In this document: in pieces, positions 1 to 26,300 of the stretch
Numbering within the stretch: the stretch's first letter is position 1
Layout of the letters: each line of letters begins with the position of its first letter
DNA from: a virus
Taxonomy: Duplodnaviria > Heunggongvirae > Uroviricota > Caudoviricetes
DNA length: 26,300 nucleotides
Virus record (IMG/VR): IMGVR_UViG_2602041671_000009
Strand: one strand, 5' to 3'
Program-made: the position numbers and the translations under genes
The notes under the pieces: model-generated
Seen by the model: the letters and a program-made list of their open reading frames with translations, nothing else
The model's database searches: none
Told to the model about the DNA's origin: nothing

Positions 1-1104
1 TTGCCGGCAAAAAGCAAGCATAAAGGAAGTATCCTGATAATAAGTGGTGGTCCCGGGTTACCAGGCATAAATCCTTATATTAACTTTGACTGGCCAGTCA
101 CAAATCTTCGTGAGTCATGGGATATTATTGGATTTGATCCTCGAGGCGTCGGACAGTCCACTCCGACAATAAACTGCCGGCAATCAGATACAGAGACTCA
201 GGAAAACATAACCGAAAAGCAACAAGTATTAAATAAAATTAATGCCTGTATCCATAATACCGGAGCCGAAGTCATTCGCCATATCGGCTCTAACGAGGCT
301 GTATACGATATTGATCGTATTAGGCAAGCCTTGGGGGATAAACAACTGACAGCCGTGGCGTATTCGTATGGAACTCAAATTGCAGCCTTATATGCAGAAC
401 GTTTTCCCTACAACGTAAGATCTATCGTTCTTGATGGAGTCGTCGATATCGATGACCTGGAGGACAACTTCACATGGCAACTCAAACAGGCACAGAGTTA
501 TCAGGAAACGTTTGATCGCTTTGCATCCTGGTGTGCGCGTACAAAAAGTTGCCCGCTTTCTTCAGACAGAGATAAGGCAATAACTCAGTTCCATGAGCTA
601 TTATCAAAATTACATCACAAACCTTTATTAGACAGTAAGGGAGAAAATATATCTTCAGATGAACTCATATCATTAACAACAGACCTTCTGCTATGGCGTT
701 CATCATGGCCAACCCTTGCAACTGCCATACGCCAGTTCTCTCAGGGGATTGTCAGTAATGAAATTGAAACTGCGCTCAGTGCTCCGATAGCCTCAGAAGA
801 GTCAAGCGATGCTTCGGGGGTAATCCTCTGTGTAGATCAGGGGGATGAGCAATTAACACCAGAAGAGCGAAAATCCCGAAAAGACGCTCTTGCGAATGCC
901 TTCCCGGCTATTAACTTTGACAATGGACGTTCCGATTCACCTGATTTTTGTGAATTATGGCCAATACATAGCGACCTGAACAAAACTCGCCTGAAAAATA
1001 CTGTTCTGCCCTCTGGTTTACTGTTTGTAGCACACAAATACGACCCAACAACGCCCTGGATTAATGCCCGTAAGATGCAGAGAAATTTTCCAGCCCGTTA
1101 CTAA
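1..1104 (+). CDS. alpha/beta-hydrolase fold peptidase (prolyl aminopeptidase / S33-like), 5' partial
   Basis: Frame is open from the window edge to TAA at 1102-1104. Product has GFDPRGVGQS and an A-Y-S-Y-G nucleophile-elbow-like motif typical of alpha/beta hydrolases. True start probably lies upstream of the window. Confidence 0.55.
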   Translation: MPAKSKHKGSILIISGGPGLPGINPYINFDWPVTNLRESWDIIGFDPRGVGQSTPTINCRQSDTETQENITEKQQVLNKINACIHNTGAEVIRHIGSNEAVYDIDRIRQALGDKQLTAVAYSYGTQIAALYAERFPYNVRSIVLDGVVDIDDLEDNFTWQLKQAQSYQETFDRFASWCARTKSCPLSSDRDKAITQFHELLSKLHHKPLLDSKGENISSDELISLTTDLLLWRSSWPTLATAIRQFSQGIVSNEIETALSAPIASEESSDASGVILCVDQGDEQLTPEERKSRKDALANAFPAINFDNGRSDSPDFCELWPIHSDLNKTRLKNTVLPSGLLFVAHKYDPTTPWINARKMQRNFPARY

Positions 1105-1264
1105 CAATAAATGGTGATGGGCATACATTAGCTCTCACCGGAGTTAATTTATGTGTAGATAAAGCAGTTGTACATTACCTGATCACTCCACAAAAATAGA
1201 AAATATATACTGCCCAGGAAATTCTGAAGCAGAAATACAATAATTTCAAAATATTCCGCTATTT

Positions 1265-1298
1265 GCTCCCAATGCAAAACATATATTGCATTGGGAGC
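1265..1298. repeat. 13-bp perfect inverted repeat (GCTCCCAATGCAA ... TTGCATTGGGAGC) with short AT spacer
   Basis: Read directly from the sequence; lies in the intergenic gap between the hydrolase and the Tfa-like fragment. Confidence 0.6.
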
Positions 1299-1426
1299 AT
1301 ATTCATATTTTTGTTATTATTGTATGAAATCGTCTCATGTACACGGTCCTTTTTTCGCCGAAAACTGATATTACTTTAATCAAAAGTTGACGTGCCAGAT
1401 TCGAAGTAAATTTATAAAATATCAAA

Positions 1427-1732
1427 TCAATATACATTTTGCACCTTCGAGATAGTAATGACTGTTACTGTAACATGAGTTACAAACAGCTTCATACCCA
1501 GAGCTACTGATGTATCAACTCGATTCAACAATACCCGATATTTATTCCATGCCTCCAGCAACGATCTTTCTTCCTCCGTTGCGATTTCCAGATCTACAGC
1601 ATCCTGCAGTGGCGCAATATACTCACTGAATTCCTGGATGTAGAACTGTGTGGTGACGGTCTTCCAGCCATTCGGCTCCTGCTGTATCGAAGCATACCAG
1701 GCTATTTCAATATCGCTATGCTGCGGCAGCAT
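1427..1732 (-). CDS. tail fibre assembly (Tfa)-like small ORF, probable gene remnant
   Basis: 101-aa ORF whose central segment ([38 protein letters not shown]) is near-identical to the C-terminal domain of the Tfa at 4238-4813. Flanking residues are unrelated. Confidence 0.45.
1505..1622. repeat. direct repeat copy 1 (tfa 3' segment)
   Basis: About 120 bp aligns at roughly 85-90 percent with 4270-4388 in the same orientation; identical 40-bp core at 1567-1606 versus 4333-4372. Confidence 0.7.
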
Positions 1733-1871
1733 TTAACCCCTTGTAATTCATCGCCATAATTGATTTAATTCACAAATAAAACTATAACATGGTGAAATTA
1801 ATGAAAAAAACACAGATGATGGGGCTAAAATTTACACACCACTTACCCTAAAGCTTTATGACTGGTGGGTT

Positions 1872-2455
1872 TTGGGAGTATCAAATCGGCTTGCATGGGG
1901 ATGTCCTACAAAGGAACACCTTCTTCCACACTTTCTGGAACATTTAGGTAACAACCATCTGGATATTGGTGTTGGAACTGGGTTTTACCTTACTCACGTA
2001 CCTGAGAGTAGTCTGATATCTTTAATGGATTTGAACGAAGCTAGCCTGAACGCGGCATCTACAAGGCTGGGGAATCAAAAATTAAACATAAAATTAACCA
2101 TGATGTTTTTGAACCTTATCCCGCGGCGTTACATGGTCAATTTGATTCCATTTCCATGTTTTACCTTCTTCACTGCCTGCCTGGAAATATATCTACAAAA
2201 AGCTGTGTAATACGCAATGCGGCGCAGGCCTTAACTGACGATGGAACTCTATACGGAGCCACAATTCTTGGCGATGGAGTTGTGCACAATAGCTTCGGTC
2301 AAAAACTGATGCGCATTTACAATCAGAAAGGCATCTTTTCAAACACAAAAGATTCCGAAGAAGGCTTAACACATATACTCTCAGAGCATTTCGAGAATGT
2401 TAAAACCAAGGTTCAAGGTACTGTAGTAATGTTTTCCGCTTCAGGGAAAAAATAG
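1872..2455 (+). pseudogene. class I SAM-dependent methyltransferase, frameshifted
   Basis: ORF 1872-2210 carries LDIGVGTG (SAM-binding motif I) and an MDLNE acidic motif. ORF 2156-2455 in another frame continues with FDSISMFYLLHCLP and DGTLYGATIL. The second frame is open from 2045 (...NHDVFEPYP...), so the frames swap inside the A-rich run around 2077-2092. Confidence 0.45.
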
Positions 2456-3002
2456 CATCCAACCGCAGCACGTTCTTGCATAAGGCGTGTCTGCGGTTTT
2501 TCAACTATTCAGATACATCACTCCCATCACATTCATTCCTCCGCATCATAGGCATATAGGCTATATCACCTTGATATTTTTCTTCTTCAGATAAAAACTG
2601 TTATCTATGTATACTTTTAAACCCAATCCGTGTAGAGTCTCTGCATAAGATAGTTTGCAGTTGCCACTTCAGCTTGCGCCATAAACCGCCTGATTTTTGC
2701 CGCCACCTGTTAGCATTCCTGTATACCTGAAACGACAATGTTTATCTACGAACTTTAAGAACACCCAGGATAAAAATTGTCAACTATATCATATATAACA
2801 CATTACTAATTCGAGGCTATATGAACAGCATACTGATAATCACTTCTCTCCTTATCATATTCAGCATTTTTAGTCATGCCCTAATAAAATTAGGGATTGG
2901 CATATCCAATAACCCAGACAAAACCGATGTATAAGTCAACATATCCTGAATCAGACATACAATATCGCAATGAAAATCAATAATATTTTAAGGAATATCT
3001 TC

Positions 3003-3236
3003 ATGAAATCAAAAGACACCCTAAAGTGGTTCCCTGCGCAGCTTCCTGAAGTAAGAATTATCCTAGGGGATGCTGTAGTGGAAGTAGCAAAACAGGGAAG
3101 ACCTATCAATACCAGAACATTGCTTGATTACATTGAAGGAAACATAAAGAAAAAATCATGGCTGGATAACAAAGAATTATTACAAACAGCGATATCAGTT
3201 CTTAAAGACAACCAAAATTTAAATGGTAAAATGTAA
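3003..3236 (+). CDS. YdfK/YnaE-like small prophage protein (77 aa)
   Basis: ATG at 3003 preceded by AAGGAA about 9 nt upstream. Product MKSKDTLKWFPAQLPEVRIILGDAVVEVAKQG... matches my recollection of the Qin/Rac ydfK/ynaE products that sit next to pin genes. Long AT-rich region upstream. Confidence 0.55.
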   Translation: MKSKDTLKWFPAQLPEVRIILGDAVVEVAKQGRPINTRTLLDYIEGNIKKKSWLDNKELLQTAISVLKDNQNLNGKM

Positions 3237-4237: not shown

Positions 4238-4813
4238 CTACGGCAGTGCTGGCCATTCAATATCCTGTGCAGTTGACGTATCAACACGGTTCAGCAACAC
4301 CCGATACTTTTTCCAGGCTTCCAGCAATGAGGTTTCTTCCTCCGTTGCGATTTCCAGATCTACAGCATCCTGAAGTGGCGCAATATGCTCACTGGCTACC
4401 TGCATCAGGCTGTTTTTTGTTTCTTCCGCCTCTCGGATCCGGAACAGTTTTTCTGCTTCTGCATCTTTCACCCAGGCTGTGCCGTTCCACTTCTGAAACT
4501 CCCCTTCCGGCGATAACCAGGTAACATTTTCCGGTAACGGACCGAGTTCAGAAATAAATAACGCGTCCCCTGACGCTACGTCATAAACCGTTTTACCCCG
4601 ATGGTCTTCAACGAGATGCCACGATGCCTTATCACTGTTGAAAACAGCCACAAAGCCAGCAGGAATATCTGGTGGTGCAATATCGGTACTGTTTGCTGGC
4701 AGACCTGTATGAGGCGGAATATATGCGTCACCTTCACCAATAAATTCATTAGTTCCGGCCAGCAGATTATAAATTTTTATGGTCCGTGGTTGTTCACTCA
4801 TTCTGAATGCCAT
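4238..4813 (-). CDS. tfa: tail fibre assembly protein Tfa (lambda-like)
   Basis: 191-aa [34 protein letters not shown]... through ...[29 protein letters not shown]. Matches lambda Tfa from memory. Start overlaps the stop of the upstream fibre ORF. Confidence 0.85.
4270..4388. repeat. direct repeat copy 2 (tfa 3' segment)
   Basis: Partner of 1505-1622; same orientation. Confidence 0.7.
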
Positions 4814-17062: not shown

Positions 17063-17797
17063 TAACTTTCTCCACAAAATCAGGCCAGCACACCAATCGC
17101 CAGTGCGCGATCGATAAAACGAAATATCAGCTCCAGCTGGGAGCCATGCCGCCATCTCCCTGACCAGTTTTTCCGCCTGCTGGCGAACCTGCGCCAGAAA
17201 GGCCTCACCACATGCCTCAAGTTCATCGCGCCCGATGTAGCTGATTGCCGGTCCCTTCCAGGTCTTGTCGAAAACAGCAATAGCACCAGCGAAGAAAGCG
17301 CCTGTCGGCACCTGCTTCTCGTCCTTCGGGATAAACCAGGCTGGCAGTTCAAAACCAATACGCCCGCGAATAAAAGCAATATGGTCTGCATCTTCCGGCC
17401 ACCAAACTTCGCTGGTGGCAGCTTTGATCAGGAAAACATAGCGCCCGCCTTTATCACGCATGGCACTGGCATGCTTCATGATGTAACGCATGCCGGTGAT
17501 GTATTGCCCCTCATGCTGACTGGCGCGGCTGTACGGGGGATTACCAAAGGCAGCACCTTTAAGCTCCGCAAGACGTTCTGACCAGTCATGCGCCAGCGCG
17601 TTGTCTTCCGCAGTGTAATAAGCGGCGCATTTGGCGTTATCACCATCAGTAAACAGATCCAGAACAAACGGGCCAAACAGGGTGTTAATTCCCCAGAAAA
17701 TGTTGTCCGGCGTGCGCCACTGATCGCCCACTTCCTTCAGTTCATGGGCTGGTTTGTTCCGCAGCTCCACCAGCGCCTGGCAATATTTATTACTCAT
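17063..17797 (-). CDS. phage Dam-like N6-adenine DNA methyltransferase, in-frame continuous with Q
   Basis: Product [72 protein letters not shown]...FGNPPYSR (NPPY amino-MTase motif). No stop codon separates it from the Q codons; ORF 16679-17830 is one 383-aa frame. Confidence 0.65.
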
Positions 17798-18291
17798 TAA
17801 GCCCCCACGTAATTCCCTGACAGATACCACTCTTCACCCGATGCAGCGCGCTTGCTGCTTTTCCGTAAACACCGCTCACGACGCGCAAGAAAATTGTTTC
17901 GCTCTTGCTGGGAGTGGCTTTCACGGAATGCCGCCATCCACACCGTTGCAGCACGACGGTATAAGCCCCTGGACTCCAGTTCTTCCGCCTGGCGGGTCAG
18001 GCACAAAATCACCCGGGGATCGTTAGTGCCGACATAGAAATTGCGCACAGGTCTGGATTCACGAACTGGTTGCGGTTCCGGCTCCTGCGGTATCTCAGTT
18101 AGCCGCGGGAAATGTCTGCGTGTATCCCCTTCACAACGGTGAGCCACACGCCCACTCTGACGTAACTTGCTTGCTGACTGCAGAACGCGCTGTCGTGAGT
18201 AACCTGCAAAAGCATCCGCAATGTCTCCGGAAGTACACCCCGGATGGGCTTCAATGAATTTCTGAACGTCATTCAAAAGACTCATGATCAC
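17797..18291 (-). CDS. hypothetical early protein (YfdN-like; PerC-like C-terminal motif)
   Basis: 164-aa ORF, translationally coupled on both sides. C-terminal [18 protein letters not shown]...[13 protein letters not shown] resembles PerC-family motifs. Confidence 0.4.
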
Positions 18292-18641
18292 CCCCTGAAT
18301 CCTGCCGGGATCTGGCTGTAGTCCACGTTGTCGTAACTGGCTTTGAAGTACGGGTCTTCGCGTTTTTCGGTGTACGTGCTGACGGACGGCGATAAGCGCA
18401 GGGAAAGCTCATCCCATTTTTCCCGCAGCTTCGACGGGCTGAGCACGTTACGGCACCAGAACGGATCGCGACTGACGCGGCTGTACATCTCGCAGATTTG
18501 TTTATGAGTACGACCATCCTGCACACACATCAGGCGAATTTCGTTTGCCCAGGCTGTCCAGTTCGGTTCTTTGGGACGAACCACCTCGCCGTCACATTCG
18601 GCGGCATGCTCGTACAGGGCGATGATTTTTTCCAGAGCCAC
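18288..18641 (-). CDS. hypothetical protein, possibly a detached C-terminal part of the replication initiator (YfdO-like)
   Basis: 117-codon frame beginning at GTG 18641, only 10 nt downstream of the initiator stop; no motif recognised. Confidence 0.35.
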   Translation of the reverse strand: MALEKIIALYEHAAECDGEVVRPKEPNWTAWANEIRLMCVQDGRTHKQICEMYSRVSRDPFWCRNVLSPSKLREKWDELSLRLSPSVSTYTEKREDPYFKASYDNVDYSQIPAGFRG

Positions 18642-18651
18642 TGTGCGCAGG

Positions 18652-19227
18652 TCAAATCATCCTGTGTCCCCCACTGGCGCTTTTTAGGCTGAATACAACC
18701 GCATCAGGATGGCGAGTTAAAAAATCCTGTTCAGCCGTCTGCGTGTCCGGTTGCGAAGAGTCCGGACGAGAAGGTTTTTTATCTGACGGATCATGTTTTG
18801 ATTTTACTGACGGATCCCCGCCAGATTCTGACGGGTGAAAACCCGCTTTTTTGCCAGATTTCGACGCATCAAATTTTGACGGGTCAGATTTTGATGCGTC
18901 AGATTTTGACGGGTCAGAATCTGACAGTTGAGAAAATGCCGCTGCCTGAAGCTTCGCAACGTTAAGCTGATAAACATTCGACGCATTGCGGTTACCCTGG
19001 CGACGCGCCTTACGCGTTAACCAGCCTTCTGCTTCCAGCCGTGCGATAGCCGTTCTGACGGTACTCATCCCCGCGCCAATCTGGCGGGCAATGGTTTCAA
19101 TCGATGGCCAGCACACACCTTCGTCATTACTGAAATCAGCCAGGCGGGCCATAATTGCCACGCTGGATAATTTCATGCCTGACGCTGCGCAACCATCCCA
19201 TACATAGCCGGTTAATTTAGTGCTCAT
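18652..19227 (-). CDS. replication initiator-like protein (N-terminal winged-HTH), iterons within the coding sequence
   Basis: 191-aa ORF with HTH segment WPSIETIARQIGAGMSTVRTAIARLEAEGWLTRKARR, followed by a low-complexity DPSKSDASKSDPSKFDASKSG linker encoded by tandem DNA repeats. Confidence 0.55.
   Translation of the reverse strand: MSTKLTGYVWDGCAASGMKLSSVAIMARLADFSNDEGVCWPSIETIARQIGAGMSTVRTAIARLEAEGWLTRKARRQGNRNASNVYQLNVAKLQAAAFSQLSDSDPSKSDASKSDPSKFDASKSGKKAGFHPSESGGDPSVKSKHDPSDKKPSRPDSSQPDTQTAEQDFLTRHPDAVVFSLKSASGGHRMI
18784..18931. repeat. iteron-like direct repeats (putative prophage ori)
   Basis: About eight copies of a TGACGG(G/A)TCA-containing unit. The last four are spaced 14-16 bp apart (ATTTTGACGGGTCAG / ATTTTGATGCGTCAG / ATTTTGACGGGTCAG / AATCTGACAGTTGAG). 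Confidence 0.55.
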
Positions 19228-20373: not shown

Positions 20374-20463
20374 ACAATATGTACCTCCGGTGTACATATT
20401 ACATGATTGAAATGAACCTTCAAGATACTTGTACCTTAACGGTACAAGGGTTTTAATTTCGTT
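20374..20463. promoter_or_regulatory. divergent cI/cro control region with palindromic operators
   Basis: Perfect inverted repeat CTTGTACC-TTAAC-GGTACAAG at 20428-20448 and near-perfect CAATATGTAC-(7 nt)-GTACATATTA at 20375-20401; both are built on TGTAC half-sites. Confidence 0.55.
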
Positions 20464-21138
20464 ATGAAAACAATCCATGACATCCGGCGGTCTAACGCCA
20501 GAAAACTGAGAGATGGTGTTGGAGGGAATTCTTCCTTTGCCACTATGATTGATCGCGAGCCAACCCAGACCAGCAGGTTTATGGGAGATGGTGCTACTAA
20601 AAATATCGGTGACAGCATGGCACGACACATCGAAAAATGTTTCGACCTGCCTGTCGGATGGCTCGATCAAGAACACCAGACAACGAACATCACAAAAAAA
20701 CCTGATGTTTCAATCACTAATAAACAAATCACATTAGTCCCTGTCATATCATGGGTACAGGCCGGAGCATGGAAAGAAGTTGGATATTCTGAGGTTGATT
20801 TGAGCACAGCAGAAACGTATCCCTGCCCTGTACCCTGTGGGGAAATGACTTATATCTTGCGGGTGATAGGTGATTCAATGATTGATGAGTACCGCCCGGG
20901 AGACATGATTTTTGTCGATCCTGAAGTACCTGCCTGCCACGGTGACGACGTTATTGCATTGATGCACGATACAGGTGAAACCACCTTCAAAAGGTTGATA
21001 GAAGATGGGACACAGCGTTATCTCAAAGCGTTAAACCCAAACTGGCCTGAGCCTTACATTAAGATCAACGGTAATTGCTCTATAATTGGAACTGTGATTT
21101 TCTCAGGAAAACCAAGAAGATACAAAATCAAAGCCTAA
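20464..21138 (+). CDS. cI: CI-type prophage repressor (HTH plus S24 LexA-like peptidase domain)
   Basis: 224-aa ORF with N-terminal HTH and C-terminal GDSM (Ser) ... FSGK (Lys) autocleavage dyad; essentially no SD before the ATG. Confidence 0.8.
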   Translation: MKTIHDIRRSNARKLRDGVGGNSSFATMIDREPTQTSRFMGDGATKNIGDSMARHIEKCFDLPVGWLDQEHQTTNITKKPDVSITNKQITLVPVISWVQAGAWKEVGYSEVDLSTAETYPCPVPCGEMTYILRVIGDSMIDEYRPGDMIFVDPEVPACHGDDVIALMHDTGETTFKRLIEDGTQRYLKALNPNWPEPYIKINGNCSIIGTVIFSGKPRRYKIKA

Positions 21139-21150
21139 TCAATGTTTATG

Positions 21151-21174
21151 AACCTGCTTCGGCAGGTTTTTTAT
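21151..21174 (+). terminator. intrinsic terminator downstream of cI
   Basis: AACCTGC-TTCG-GCAGGTT hairpin followed by a T-run, 13 nt after the cI stop. Confidence 0.65.
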
Positions 21175-21176
21175 AC

Positions 21177-21209
21177 TTGACAATGTACCTATGAGATACA
21201 TAATGTACC
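21177..21209 (+). promoter_or_regulatory. sigma70-like promoter with operator-like ATGTACC repeats (candidate pL-equivalent)
   Basis: TTGACA (21177-21182), 16-bp spacer, CATAAT (21199-21204). Heptamer ATGTACC at 21183-21189 and 21203-21209 shares the TGTAC core with the cI/cro operators. Confidence 0.5.
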
Positions 21210-21351: not shown

Positions 21352-21843
21352 CTACAGATTGCCGTTAAGTTTTCTGGACAACTCCTCAATGGATGGAGGC
21401 GATACGTAATCCGGATTTTTATTCATCAGAAACTTATTTTCACAGTGGAGGCACCTGCTTTTATGAAAAAGCTCATCTTCGCTAACCGGGAATGGTTGAA
21501 GTATCGATACTATCTTTTGTCCAAAACATTTTGGGCAAAGATGCATGGTTATGCTGCCACCGTTCACGATTACCTCCTTCGAGTATACAAAAGTACCCGA
21601 CTCAAGTTGGTTAAGGATATAGCCTTCCGTCTGAGCCTCAAAGTTTTCGAATTCTGCAATTTTAGCTTTGAGAGAAGCATTTATTTCTTGATAAGAGCCC
21701 ACCAGTTCAACGAGAGACACGCATTCGCGCTGAATAGACGCAAGCTTTGAGTTCAGCTCACCAATAGCCGCATTTACTTCAGCTTGAGTTTTTGCCTCGT
21801 TCATTAGTTTTGCAATCTGGGCTGTTTCACGAATAGCCGTCAT
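21352..21843 (-). CDS. hypothetical coiled-coil protein with C-terminal CxxC...CxxC zinc-ribbon-like motif
   Basis: 163 aa from ATG 21843 (MTAIRETAQIAKLMNEAKTQAEVNAAIGELNSKLASIQRE...CPKCFGQ...CLHCENK...). Convergent with cI; weak RBS, and the frame is open upstream so the start is uncertain. Confidence 0.45.
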   Translation of the reverse strand: MTAIRETAQIAKLMNEAKTQAEVNAAIGELNSKLASIQRECVSLVELVGSYQEINASLKAKIAEFENFEAQTEGYILNQLESGTFVYSKEVIVNGGSITMHLCPKCFGQKIVSILQPFPVSEDELFHKSRCLHCENKFLMNKNPDYVSPPSIEELSRKLNGNL

Positions 21844-21881
21844 TGCTGCCGTTAATTCAGCGATCACATTGAATACTCTTA

Positions 21882-21927: not shown

Positions 21928-22154
21928 ATAACCAGGTCCACCTCGCCTGATGTGGCTAAAAGCAGGCACATAACAGCTAAGTATTTTCAACCAGAGAGAA
22001 TCCTTAGCGTTGTGGTGAATGCGGCTCAGCGCACGCGGGTTAAGGTTGAGGCTGACAGTCGACCTTCTGTGGATACCCACCCGCCTGGTGTGCAACCTTC
22101 GCCAGGCACCGGGAGGCACCCGGCACCACAACTTTATGCTGTGTGTAGTCCTGG

Positions 22155-22198
22155 CGGTACCAGCTTGTACCCTTGCTTCCGGCTGGTACCGTCCTTTT
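22155..22198 (+). terminator. strong hairpin plus T-run (intrinsic-terminator-like) in the GC-rich leader
   Basis: CGGTACCAGC (22155-22164), 17-nt loop, GCTGGTACCG (22182-22191), then TCCTTTTTA. Confidence 0.45.
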
Positions 22199-22336
22199 TA
22201 CAAAACAGAGAAGAGCATCACCGGACGACGGGCTCATAACCCAATCCATCCGGGCGGCGGCCACCACAGGTGTTCTTCTCTGTTTTGTGGAGAAACTAAT
22301 CGGCCTTGCAGGGTCGATATGATGAGGAGCAGCAAA

Positions 22337-22699
22337 ATGGCTAGCGAACGCAGTACTGATGTGCAGGCATTTATCGGGGAGCTGGACGGCGGCGTATTTG
22401 AAACCAAAATCGGCGCAGTTCTCAGTGAAGTCGCTTCCGGTGTGATGAACACGAAAACCAAAGGTAAGGTCTCACTCAACCTGGAAATCGAACCATTTGA
22501 TGAGAACCGTGTGAAAATCAAACACAAACTCTCTTATATTCGCCCGACTAACCGCGGGAAAATTTCCGAAGAAGACACCACCGAAACGCCGATGTATGTC
22601 AATCGCGGTGGTCGCCTGACTATTCTGCAGGAAGACCAGGGACAATTACTGACTCTTGCCGGTGAACCTGACGGAAAACTCCGCGCAGCAGGTCGTTAA
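22337..22699 (+). CDS. hypothetical early-left protein (YfdP-like, 120 aa)
   Basis: ATG 22337 preceded by GAGGAG about 9 nt upstream. The ORF-track frame starts further upstream (22019) across the GC-rich leader and is probably not translated from there. Confidence 0.5.
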   Translation: MASERSTDVQAFIGELDGGVFETKIGAVLSEVASGVMNTKTKGKVSLNLEIEPFDENRVKIKHKLSYIRPTNRGKISEEDTTETPMYVNRGGRLTILQEDQGQLLTLAGEPDGKLRAAGR

Positions 22700-22764
22700 T
22701 ATCGTTCGTAATAAACTGATTATTTATCTCATCACTGAATATCTTTATATAGTGAGGACTTATT

Positions 22765-23589
22765 ATGTCTCAGAACTTAGACGCAACCGCAATTAATCAA
22801 ATCCATGCCCTTATTTCTGCTCAGGGTGTTAATGAAATTATCAGTAAGATTGGTGCCGATGCTGTGGCATTGCCTGAGAATTTCCGCATTCATGATCTGG
22901 AAAAATTTAATTTAAATCGCTTCCGTTTCCGTGGTGCACTTTCCACTGCCAGCATCGATGATTTTACCCGTTATTCTAAAGATCTTGCAGATGAAGGCAC
23001 CCGCTGCTTTATCGATGCCGATAATATGCGTGCCGTCAGTGTGCTTAACCTGGGTACTATTGATGAGCCAGGTCACGCAGATAACACTGCCACTCTCAAA
23101 CTGAAAAAGACAGCACCGTTCTCTGCTCTGTTGTCTGTTAACGGCGAGCGTAACTCCCAGAAGTCACTGGCAGAATGGATCGAAGACTGGGCCGACTACC
23201 TTGTGGGCTTTGATGCTAATGGTGACGCCATTCAAGCAACAAAAGCGGCTGCGGCAGTCCGTAAAATCACGATTGAAGCAAACCAGACCGCTGATTTTGA
23301 AGATAATGACTTCAGCGGCAAACGCTCCCTGATGGAGTCTGTCGAAGCGAAGACCAAAGACATTATGCCAGTGGCATTTGAATTTAAATGCGTTCCGTTT
23401 GAAGGTCTGAAAGAACGTCCGTTTAAATTACGCCTCAGCATTATCACTGGCGATCGTCCTGTACTGGTTCTGCGCATTATTCAGCTGGAAGCGGTGCAGG
23501 AAGAAATGGCTAACGAATTTCGTGATCTGCTTGTTGAGAAATTCAAAGACAGCAAAGTAGAAACCTTTATTGGTACTTTCACCGCCTGA
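22765..23589 (+). CDS. hypothetical early-left protein (YfdQ-like, 274 aa)
   Basis: Clean 274-aa ORF with an AT-rich RBS region; size and neighbours match the CPS-53 yfdQ context as I recall it. Confidence 0.55.
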
Positions 23590-23716
23590 TTTCATTACTG
23601 CAAATGCCCCTGCGGGGGCATTTATGGAAACGTAATTAACTCAATAATCACCGGATGGTGAGGGCTTCCTTTTACCAGAATTCAGCGCGGTGCAGTGCAT
23701 ATACGTGGAGAACAAA

Positions 23717-24253
23717 ATGTCATTTATTAAAACTTTTTCCGGGAAGCATTTTTATTATGACAAGATAAATAAAGACGACATCGATATTAACGATATCGCG
23801 GTTTCCCTTTCAAATATCTGTCGCTTTGCCGGTCATCTTTCGCACTTCTACAGCGTCGCCCAACATGCGGTTCTTTGCAGCCAGCTGGTGCCGCAGGAAT
23901 TTGCTTTTGAAGCGTTAATGCATGATGCAACAGAAGCGTATTGCCAGGACATTCCCGCACCACTGAAACGCCTTCTTCCTGACTATAAACGGATGGAAGA
24001 AAAAATAGACGCCGTAATCCGTGAGAAATACGGGTTACCCCCAGTTATGAGTACACCCGTGAAATATGCCGATCTCATCATGCTGGCAACCGAACGCCGC
24101 GATCTCGGGCTTGATGATGGCTCTTTCTGGCCTGTACTGGAAGGCATCCCGGCAACAGAGATGTTCAACGTGATTCCACTGGCACCGGGTCATGCCTACG
24201 GGATGTTTATGGAACGTTTTAACGATTTATCGGAGTTACGCAAATGCGCATGA
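23717..24253 (+). CDS. HD-domain phosphohydrolase (YfdR-like 5'-deoxynucleotidase family)
   Basis: 178 aa from ATG 23717 with H...HD-type metal-binding residues (HFYSVAQHAVLCS, EALMHDATEAY). Confidence 0.6.
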   Translation: MSFIKTFSGKHFYYDKINKDDIDINDIAVSLSNICRFAGHLSHFYSVAQHAVLCSQLVPQEFAFEALMHDATEAYCQDIPAPLKRLLPDYKRMEEKIDAVIREKYGLPPVMSTPVKYADLIMLATERRDLGLDDGSFWPVLEGIPATEMFNVIPLAPGHAYGMFMERFNDLSELRKCA

Positions 24254-24606
24254 ATGTTTTCGAAATGGAAGGGTTTCTTCGCGGGAAATGTGTACTGCGA
24301 GATCTGAAAGTGAACGAAACAAATGCTGAGTACCTGGTACGTAAATTCGACGCGCTTGAAGCTAAATGTGCGGCACTGGAAAACAAAATAATACCAGTGT
24401 CAGCTGAACTGCCACCAGCAAATGAAAGTGTTCTGTTATTTGATGCTAATGGAGAAGGCTGGCTGATTGGCTGGCGTTCTCTCTGGTACACCTGGGGACA
24501 AAAAGAAACCGGAGAATGGCAGTGGATATTTCAGGTCGGGGACCTTGAAAACGTCAATATCACTCACTGGGCAGTAATGCCAAAAGCACCGGAGGCTGGA
24601 GCATAA
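24244..24606 (+). CDS. hypothetical protein (YfdS-like, DUF551-type C-terminus)
   Basis: 120-aa ORF overlapping the upstream stop; C-terminal ...NITHWAVMP motif. Confidence 0.5.
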   Translation: MRMNVFEMEGFLRGKCVLRDLKVNETNAEYLVRKFDALEAKCAALENKIIPVSAELPPANESVLLFDANGEGWLIGWRSLWYTWGQKETGEWQWIFQVGDLENVNITHWAVMPKAPEAGA

Positions 24607-24836
24607 TGACCACATTTACCAATAAAGAACTGATTAAAGAAATCAAAGAACGAATCAGCAGCCTAGAGGTTCGAGACGATATTGAGCGCCGTGCTTATGA
24701 AATCGCACTCGTATCTCTGGAAGTAGAGCCAGATGAACGCGAAGCCTATGAATTATTCATGGAAAAGCGTTTCGGTGACTTAGTAGATCGTCGGAGAGCA
24801 AAAACGGCGATAACGAATACATGGCATGGGATATGA
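24606..24836 (+). CDS. small hypothetical protein (76 aa)
   Basis: ATG overlapping the upstream stop; charged, helical-looking product. Confidence 0.4.
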   Translation: MTTFTNKELIKEIKERISSLEVRDDIERRAYEIALVSLEVEPDEREAYELFMEKRFGDLVDRRRAKTAITNTWHGI

Positions 24837-24909
24837 CTCTCGGTTGGATCGTCTGGCAGCAACGAGCTGGTATCCATTTTTCAACAATGACACAGCAAGA
24901 GGTGAAATA

Positions 24910-25281
24910 ATGGAGCCATACAGCCTCACACTCGATGAGGCCTGTCAGTTTCTTAAGATATCCAGACCAACCGCCACCAACTGGATACGAACAGGCCGCC
25001 TACAGGCAACACGTAAAGATCCAACCAAGCCAAAATCTCCTTACCTCACAACACGGCAAGCTTGCATTGCGGCGCTTCAGTCTCCGCTGCATACTGTCCA
25101 GGTGAGCGCGGGTGATGGCATAACAGAGGAAAGAAAATGTCACTCTTCCGCAGAAATGAAATATGGTATGCCTCGTATTCGCTCCCGGGCGGGAAACGAA
25201 TTAAGGAATCTCTTGGCACAAAGGACAAGCGGCAAGCTCAGGAGTTGCACGACAAGCGAAAAGCAGAACTCTGGCGAGTAG
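24910..25281 (+). CDS. xis: excisionase-like HTH protein (Xis/AlpA-type)
   Basis: ATG 24910 with GAGGTG upstream. N-terminal [32 protein letters not shown] is a typical excisionase HTH. The frame runs 145 nt into the integrase gene, so the true 3' end is uncertain. Confidence 0.55.
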
Positions 25282-26300
25282 AAAAGCTAGGGGATTTACC
25301 TGATGTCACTTTTGAAGAGGCCTGCCTAAGATGGCTTGAAGAAAAAGCTGATAAAAAATCTCTCGATTCAGATAAAAGCCGGATTGAGTTCTGGCTTGAA
25401 CATTTTGAGGGTATAAGGCTTAAAGATATCTCGGAGGCAAAGATTTACTCTGCTGTAAGCAGAATGCATAACAGAAAGACGAAAGAAATATGGAAACAGA
25501 AAGTTCAGGCCGCCATCAGGAAAGGTAAAGAACCGCCTGTTTATGAACCAAAGCCAGTATCAACTCAGACAAAGGCAAAGCATCTTGCCATGATAAAGGC
25601 CATTCTCCGTGCTGCAGAACGCGACTGGAAGTGGCTGGAAAAAGCGCCTGTCATCAAGATACCAGCGGTCAGAAACAAGCGCGTCAGATGGCTGGAAAAG
25701 GAGGAAGCAAAACGCCTTATTGATGAGTGCCCCGAACCACTGAAATCTGTCGTCAAGTTTGCGCTGGCAACTGGTCTGAGAAAGTCGAACATCATAAATC
25801 TGGAATGGCAACAAATCGACATGCAGCGACGAGTTGCCTGGGTGAACCCAGAAGAGAGCAAATCAAACCGCGCCATTGGTGTGGCGCTGAACGATACCGC
25901 CTGTAAAGTGTTGCGTGATCAAATAGGCAAGCATCACAAATGGGTGTTTGTACATACCAAGGCGGCTAAGCGAGCAGATGGAACATCAACGCCTGCGGTC
26001 AGGAAGATGCGCATCGACAGCAAGACATCATGGCTATCAGCTTGTCGTCGTGCAGGAATTGAAGATTTCCGTTTCCATGACCTCAGACACACCTGGGCAA
26101 GCTGGCTGATTCAGTCAGGCGTCCCATTATCAGTGCTTCAGGAAATGGGCGGATGGGAGTCCATAGAAATGGTTCGTAGGTATGCTCACCTTGCGCCTAA
26201 TCATTTGACAGAGCATGCGAGGAAAATAGACGACATTTTTGGTGATAATGTCCCAAATATGTCCCACTCTGGAATTATGGAGGATATAAAGAAGGCGTAA
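25137..26300 (+). CDS. int: tyrosine integrase (IntD/DLP12-like)
   Basis: 387-aa [50 protein letters not shown]..., C-terminal catalytic region with [11 protein letters not shown] and RRYAHL (R-H-R-Y). Stop is at the last base of the window. Confidence 0.88.

Follow-up and report, generated by a model that had tools for sequence, protein, structure and literature searches.

What occupies the early-left operon of a lambdoid prophage in the place where lambda carries exo, bet, gam and kil? The question is raised by a cluster of five genes in the Caudoviricetes record IMGVR_UViG_2602041671_000009, a stretch of 26,300 nt that we refer to in its full length as the window and to which all coordinates apply; our reference strain for DNA comparison was Escherichia coli 94-3024 (NZ_CP009106.2, O104:H21). 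Within positions 22337-24836, the + strand holds five open reading frames (ORFs) of 120, 274, 178, 120 and 76 amino acids, each with a Shine-Dalgarno-like sequence 5' of it. In pairwise BLASTP, their products are 98, 99, 99, 98 and 97% identical to YfdP, YfdQ, YfdR, YfdS and YfdT of the K-12 prophage CPS-53, respectively. Gene order and lengths equal those of K-12 CPS-53 and of 94-3024 (120, 274, 178, 120 and 101 amino acids), a frameshift in yfdT excepted, and an excisionase gene then follows. The kinship with CPS-53 yfdP-yfdS, which the initial annotation had proposed from the protein sizes, is therefore one of orthology and not of mere likeness (97-99% identity over the five proteins), and the fifth gene, which it had counted as an additional unknown, is yfdT. 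Searching complete E. coli genomes by megablast with positions 22000-25300, we found a 100% match in 94-3024, where RefSeq names the same DNA yfdP, yfdQ, yfdR, “phage protein” and yfdT, and matches in 3641 of the 5426 genomes. Among active phages, SfV, SfIV, PhiR29, PhiR49 and Kati have nearly the same DNA (96-99.9% identity) as their early-left operon. Based on these comparisons, it is nearly certain that the cluster is the known yfdPQRST module from the early-left operon of SfV/SfIV/CPS-53-type lambdoid phages. It is thus already known and very common, and only partly uncharacterised.

The relatives differ in what surrounds the module. SfV (orf29-32), SfIV (gp30-34), PhiR29, Kati and mEp460 have the layout seen here (cI, yfdP, yfdQ, yfdR, yfdS, yfdT, xis, int), with 96-99.9% DNA identity from yfdP to int, and are complete and active temperate phages, whereas the prophage in the window has truncated terminase, portal and tail genes. 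CPS-53 (KplE1) of K-12 shares the five genes, their order and lengths, the 97-99% protein identity and the xis-type gene after them. However, its upstream region is deleted and its integrase lies at the opposite end, while the prophage studied here is of the argU/intD type and retains an intact cI and pL region upstream.

All five genes lie on the + strand: yfdP at 22337-22699 (120 amino acids; recent public Pfam family PF27127, “YfdP”), yfdQ at 22765-23589 (274 amino acids; DUF2303), yfdR at 23717-24253 (178 amino acids; an HD-domain 5'-deoxynucleotidase and DnaA-binding protein, a function taken from PMC4776307), yfdS at 24244-24606 (120 amino acids; an N-terminal segment that also occurs in other early proteins of phages, followed by a DUF551-like domain at the C-terminus) and yfdT, at 24606-24910 when intact (101 amino acids) and reduced in the window to a 76-amino-acid ORF at 24606-24836. 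Their description as five tightly coupled genes fits the second half of the cluster, where yfdR and yfdS overlap by 10 nt and yfdS and yfdT by 1 nt, and does not fit the first, where 65 nt separate yfdP from yfdQ and 127 nt separate yfdQ from yfdR. The latter spacer contains, at 23602-23623 on the + strand, a G+C-rich hairpin with a 9-bp stem and a 4-nt loop (AAATGCCCC-TGCG-GGGGCATTT), without a clear U-tract; a transcript-stability element or an attenuator are possibilities for its role.

The shortness of the fifth gene has a simple explanation. Residues 1-66 of its product match K-12 YfdT, and a three-way DNA alignment showed that the frame is lost through one A missing in a run of six A (A6) at about 24804. 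Compared with 94-3024 over 26.3 kb, the window lacks 14 single bases, each in a homopolymer (at 1077, 1196, 1810, 2066, 3969, 7393, 9012, 13150, 13775, 15382, 18631, 18688, 21172 and 24804), and has no substitution. The same deletions split the replication gene (18288-19227) and shorten yfdT; an intact yfdT would have its end at 24910, in a TAATG shared with the start codon of xis. Because all 14 differences are homopolymer deletions without substitutions, the truncation is most likely a sequencing or assembly artefact, and we rejected biological decay of yfdT, as this pattern points to an assembly error.

Is the cluster a recombination (Rec) module in disguise? It occupies the lambda exo/bet/gam slot, between a pL-like promoter and xis-int, and in DLP12 of K-12, which has the same intD at the same argU site, xisD' is followed by an exoD pseudogene. 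As for annotated genes, exo, bet, gam, erf and recT are absent from the whole prophage and from SfIV; this is a statement about annotation only and not the outcome of an exhaustive profile scan. By position, then, and with no Rec gene annotated and an exoD remnant in the same place in DLP12, the cluster does stand in place of a recombination module, as the initial annotation had it. None of the five proteins is itself a recognisable recombination protein: in Pfam, PHROGs and NCBIfam, we found no match to Redbeta/RecT, Erf, Sak, Sak4, exonuclease or Gam/Abc2 families. The predicted folds of YfdP and YfdQ bear no likeness to known annealing proteins, and the fold comparison with annealing proteins or nucleases gave no match. 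Furthermore, the yfdP-yfdQ pair adjoins complete Rec modules in PA2 (Gam-like, RecT, exonuclease and SSB) and in CP2 (Erf, exonuclease, endonuclease and SSB), so the two are not mutually exclusive; a like arrangement is reported for ArgO145, from which Zheng et al. conclude that the genes are unlikely to be cryptic recombinases (PMC12315714). We therefore rejected a cryptic recombination module, given this co-occurrence with RecT and Erf modules and the lack of sequence or fold similarity. The likeness to lambda exo-bet-gam-kil and to the DLP12 exoD remnant is one of map position, between pL and xis-int, extended in DLP12 by the shared integrase and attachment site; neither has a sequence or fold relationship to the cluster, whose YfdP-YfdQ pair co-occurs with Rec modules elsewhere.

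Lambdoid phages without a Rec module have been described by Zheng, Casjens, Davidson, Amundsen and Smith (2025; PMC12315714) as rich in Chi sites, with yfdP/Q/R homologues common in their early left operons. By its annotated gene content, the phage type studied here belongs to this recently described class without recombination genes of its own. Like the LLS-type “No Rec module, high Chi” phages, the prophage and SfIV are, according to their annotation, without Rec genes in the early-left or nin regions, and Chi is enriched in SfIV, whose 39.8 kb contain 11 sites where 1.5 are expected; 10 of the 11 lie on one strand. The phage type probably relies on host RecBCD and RecA via enriched Chi sites. 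Unlike the LLS type, the window itself holds just four Chi sites (GCTGGTGG; 0.8 expected), at 17411, 17767, 19924 and, on the - strand, 24412-24419; the last of these lies inside yfdS and is kept in SfIV. This density, about one per 6.6 kb, is close to that of the host chromosome and is uninformative in a defective prophage, and for these reasons we dropped the window count as evidence of RecBCD dependence.

The best-characterised member of the cluster is YfdR. Its residues H50, H69-D70 and D119 align with metal-binding residues of PDB entry 2gz4 (E = 4e-14), and it matches phrog_318, “deoxyribonucleoside 5' monophosphate phosphatase”, at 5e-110, which upholds the reading of the 178-amino-acid protein as an HD-domain hydrolase. 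It scores below the curated cut-offs of PF12917 (YfbR-like; 24.3 vs 25.9), HD_3 (17 vs 22.5) and NCBIfam NF003009 (19.9 vs 122); judged by these profiles, YfdR is an HD protein and not a YfbR equivalog. With the YfbR and Atu1052-type (PDB 2gz4) 5'-deoxynucleotidases it has in common the HD fold and the H, HD, D metal-binding residues. It differs from them in its scores below the Pfam and NCBIfam cut-offs, in a reportedly far weaker affinity for nucleotides and in an extra activity, the binding of DnaA. The protein is cited as a weak 5'-nucleotidase (Zimmerman, 2008, as cited in PMC4776307). Noguchi and Katayama (2016; PMC4776307) showed that YfdR binds DnaA directly, via domain I and dependent on DnaA Phe46, the surface used by DiaA and DnaB. 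In the same study, multicopy yfdQ and yfdR, together with yfdS or yfdT, suppressed over-initiation and inhibited initiation at oriC, and on both counts the description of the cluster as functionally uncharacterised is outdated.

YfdP and YfdQ have a much wider distribution than the module. YfdQ matches DUF2303 (PF10065) over nearly its full length (residues 7-272 to model positions 2-269 of 269; 309.7 bits vs a cut-off of 26.6, 2e-92). Using a hidden Markov model built from YfdP homologues (matches at E = 1e-65 to 2e-22), we found a YfdP-like ORF directly upstream of the YfdQ homologue in SfIV, ST64B, PA2, the Vibrio phages VvAW1 and 24E30.2, the Pseudomonas phage pAN and the Xanthomonas phage CP2, and in Xenorhabdus and Klebsiella prophages the pair forms the first genes after the repressor. 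The pair was present in all nine of the diverse loci examined, while YfdR, YfdS and YfdT were variable; among the phages compared for the pair, YfdR occurs only in SfIV, ST64B and pAN. Its neighbours are often SSB and DEDD-type exonucleases, and an SSB or exonuclease gene adjoins it in virulent Vibrio and Xanthomonas phages. YfdP-YfdQ is thus a separate and much wider-spread conserved pair that lies, in temperate and virulent phages alike, in regions of DNA metabolism. Many of the phages that bear the pair have no YfdR, and the pair must therefore have a role independent of DnaA targeting; that it is conserved in virulent phages without YfdR points to a separate function connected with DNA metabolism.

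Clustered at 50%, the YfdQ family comprises 1811 representatives. We also looked for domain fusions as a functional clue and found none among the top 150 representatives, all of which are single-domain proteins of about 265-288 amino acids. The one solved structure of the family is PDB entry 9o7m, “YfdQ Protein”, whose 36 chains of one sequence (E = 1e-44, or 1e-58 with the profile) imply that the protein either forms a large homo-oligomer or is present in many copies in the asymmetric unit. We could trace this sequence only to CP2-like Xanthomonas phages, where the homologue of MET23-P3 is 98.5% identical to it. With a release date after April 2026, the entry postdates the fold libraries; our literature searches found no publication on it. 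Profile searches of PDB sequences revealed no YfdQ relative beyond 9o7m and no YfdP relative. A tentative and rather doubtful proposal would be that YfdP-YfdQ is a two-protein machine, with folds unseen in released PDB entries except 9o7m and with YfdQ as a large homo-oligomer (suggested by the 36 chains of that entry), that works on DNA or the replisome, partnered by SSB or an exonuclease, in phages of Enterobacteria, Vibrio, Pseudomonas and Xanthomonas, temperate and virulent alike, and that here it cooperates with YfdR in the capture of host DnaA and DnaB for a phage without a helicase loader.

The two remaining proteins are YfdS and YfdT. YfdS matches phrog_583 at 5e-81, and its match to DUF551, the domain named in the initial annotation, is borderline (PF04448 at residues 50-117, 21.6 bits vs a cut-off of 22, E = 4e-4); published work treats K-12 YfdS as DUF551 and describes the domain as a portable one of Ea22-type early proteins. 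In PA2 gp16, the YfdT N-terminal segment is found again, joined to DUF551. Among the loci compared, YfdS and full-length YfdT are confined to the SfV/CPS-53 type. Because DUF551 is portable and the YfdT segment is fused to it in PA2 gp16, YfdS and YfdT look like mosaic accessory proteins.

How would the module be expressed, and what would it do? A cI-like S24 repressor is encoded at 20464-21138 on the + strand, and a cro-like gene, on the - strand and ending at about 20372, lies upstream of it. The cI-like gene is followed by a terminator hairpin (21150-21169) and by a probable pL-type promoter, TTGACA-16-CATAAT, at 21177-21204 on the + strand, which the promoter scan scored as an 11 of 12 match; the total count of promoter-like sequences in the region is not above chance. 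Operator palindromes lie over this promoter, namely TGTACCTATGAGATACA at 21184-21200 and a second, half-overlapping copy at 21195-21209, and the pattern TGTACC-N5-GrTACA is common to them and to sites at 20380-20396 and 20430-20446 in the cI/cro intergenic region. The palindromes probably serve the cI-like repressor as its OR and OL operators, and, because they recur between cI and cro, we infer that the promoter is the equivalent of pL/OL. On loss of the repressor, transcription would start at this promoter, cross a leader of about 1.1 kb and proceed from yfdP through yfdT into xis and int. The shared operator palindromes, the Shine-Dalgarno sequences and the overlapping stop and start codons from yfdR through xis support such an operon. 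YfdR would then target domain I of DnaA and, with YfdQ and YfdS or YfdT, block host initiation, as observed on overexpression of 99%-identical proteins (PMC4776307); during lytic growth the module would in this way shut down initiation of the host chromosome. Such a block of oriC may benefit a phage with just one origin-binding-type protein, and no helicase loader, as its replication module; for recombination the phage would depend on host RecBCD and Chi.

A number of points weigh against this picture. The DnaA effect was obtained only on multicopy plasmids, replication was unaffected by deletion of yfdQRST, and the authors concede that the effect may be an overexpression artefact (PMC4776307). 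In their experiments yfdP was dispensable for the multicopy oriC effect, and YfdQ, YfdS and YfdT showed no stable binding to DnaA or YfdR. Many YfdP-YfdQ phages are without YfdR. The assignment of pL is a consensus match, with a terminator-like hairpin between promoter and yfdP, and the prophage is defective, with truncated terminase and portal genes. We put the chances that the DnaA effect is physiologically relevant at about even. The picture as a whole (a known module, expressed early, that blocks host initiation, leaves recombination to host RecBCD and includes an independent YfdP-YfdQ pair) seems to us somewhat more likely than not.

Among the alternatives, a functional replacement of exo/bet/gam by YfdP-YfdQ, with or without YfdR, as an unrecognised recombination module would account for the position in the Rec slot, for the absence of known Rec genes from the prophage and SfIV, and for SSB, DEDD-type exonucleases, RecT or Erf as neighbours elsewhere; the 36 chains of the YfdQ entry would also fit a ring or filament former. 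It is nevertheless very unlikely in view of the homologues that adjoin complete Rec modules in PA2, CP2 and ArgO145 (the last from PMC12315714), of the lack of any recombinase match in Pfam, PHROG or NCBIfam, and of the Chi enrichment of SfIV, which points to host RecBCD. We also consider it unlikely that the main role of the cluster is the manipulation of nucleotide pools or anti-defence, as the initial annotation had suggested, with YfdR dephosphorylating deoxyribonucleoside monophosphates or a modified or signalling nucleotide and so aiding takeover or blunting a nucleotide-based defence. The intact HD catalytic residues, the PHROG and NCBI names (deoxyribonucleoside monophosphate phosphatase and 5'-deoxynucleotidase), the in vitro nucleotidase activity as cited in PMC4776307 and the place of the gene in an early operon would suit such a role, but deletion of yfdR left the yield of cytidine monophosphate unchanged in an engineered strain, and the literature searched contained no experimental link to any defence system. 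PADLOC gave no match for the five proteins or for an antisense gene upstream of them, which is weak evidence since its models describe defence and not anti-defence. With no PADLOC match and no supporting literature found, the anti-defence role is unsupported.

A benefit to the lysogen in the form of stress tolerance, and not to phage growth, could be the reason why the genes are retained. Deletions of CPS-53, yfdQ and yfdS have been reported to raise sensitivity to hydrogen peroxide or acid (Wang, 2010, as cited in PMC4776307), and many defective prophages still carry the cluster (3641 of 5426 genomes). However, the same genes are conserved in active temperate and in virulent phages, and behind a putative repressor-controlled promoter they should be silent in a stable lysogen, so that we regard this as very unlikely. 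A possible, if less than probable, explanation is that YfdP-YfdQ is an autonomous two-protein accessory of DNA transactions (working, for example, with the replication fork or with SSB) unrelated to YfdR-DnaA, in a cluster that is a mosaic of independent functions, namely YfdP-YfdQ, YfdR, and the mosaic YfdS and YfdT. The pair is invariant in nine of nine diverse loci while YfdR, YfdS and YfdT come and go; SSB or exonuclease genes adjoin it in virulent Vibrio and Xanthomonas phages; and the fusion of the YfdT N-terminal segment to the portable DUF551 in PA2 gp16 speaks for mosaicism. Against it speaks the genetic requirement for yfdQ together with yfdR in the oriC effect (PMC4776307), which suggests some functional link between pair and YfdR. 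This explanation is compatible with the proposed early expression and host-initiation block.

The element that carries the module is a defective lambdoid prophage at the tRNA-Arg gene argU (the DLP12 site) of an E. coli strain that is in essence 94-3024, with intD, essD, rrrD, bor and nohD and with truncated terminase, portal and tail genes. Downstream of yfdT, the xis-type excisionase gene (24910-25281, +) matches phrog_2907 at 1e-45 over positions 2-117 of 117 and HTH_17 at 2e-8; at its start it overlaps the stop codon of intact yfdT, and at its end it shares 145 nt with int. For this region of 94-3024, RefSeq has just a 66-nt partial helix-turn-helix pseudogene. The intD-type integrase (25137-26300, +), so annotated by RefSeq in identical DNA, marks the end of the prophage at tRNA-Arg (argU). 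The replication module, at 18288-19227 on the - strand, appears to be a single 313-amino-acid HTH_36 protein (weak DnaD_N / RP-C), directly followed by a PerC-like gene and without a helicase or helicase loader; the same single-gene feature has been noted in phage LLS.

Between the putative pL and yfdP, an antisense gene (21352-21867, -) with its own terminator (21313-21294) encodes a protein of 171 amino acids with a coiled-coil N-terminus and a C-terminal CxxC...CxxC, which matches phrog_1244 (unknown function) and has no match in Pfam or PADLOC. The gene resembles a moron, an accessory gene with transcription of its own. The leader of about 470 nt between it and yfdP includes, at 21979-22202 on the + strand, a segment like STnc100, a prophage small RNA family related to PasD (Rfam RF02076, model positions 1-206 of 206, E = 5e-7). 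The match is below threshold (42.4 bits vs a gathering score of 47); the segment ends in a hairpin (about 22155-22200) and a U-tract and overlaps a frameshifted hypothetical pseudogene of RefSeq (22012-22322), and ST64B has a weaker, partial match in the same relative position. This could be a small RNA or a leader/terminator element of the early-left operon, its membership of the operon being uncertain. Finally, in the late or accessory part of the prophage, we found Rfam IS009 (RF02111) at 4272-4470 on the - strand, with 226.7 bits, above the gathering score.

In conclusion, the cluster is among the commonest prophage segments of E. coli, with all five genes named and one partly characterised, and as found it matters little. 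Our results correct the picture in three ways: the region is unlikely to conceal a recombinase, the shortness of the fifth gene most likely stems from assembly, and the phage type appears, by its gene content, to fall within the recent Rec-less class. The residual interest lies mainly in the widespread YfdP-YfdQ pair, which has no fold relatives and for which a 36-chain structure of YfdQ, perhaps that of a large oligomer, has just been deposited. If the tentative proposal of a two-protein machine were true, YfdP-YfdQ would represent a new class of phage factor for DNA transactions or for the takeover of host replication.

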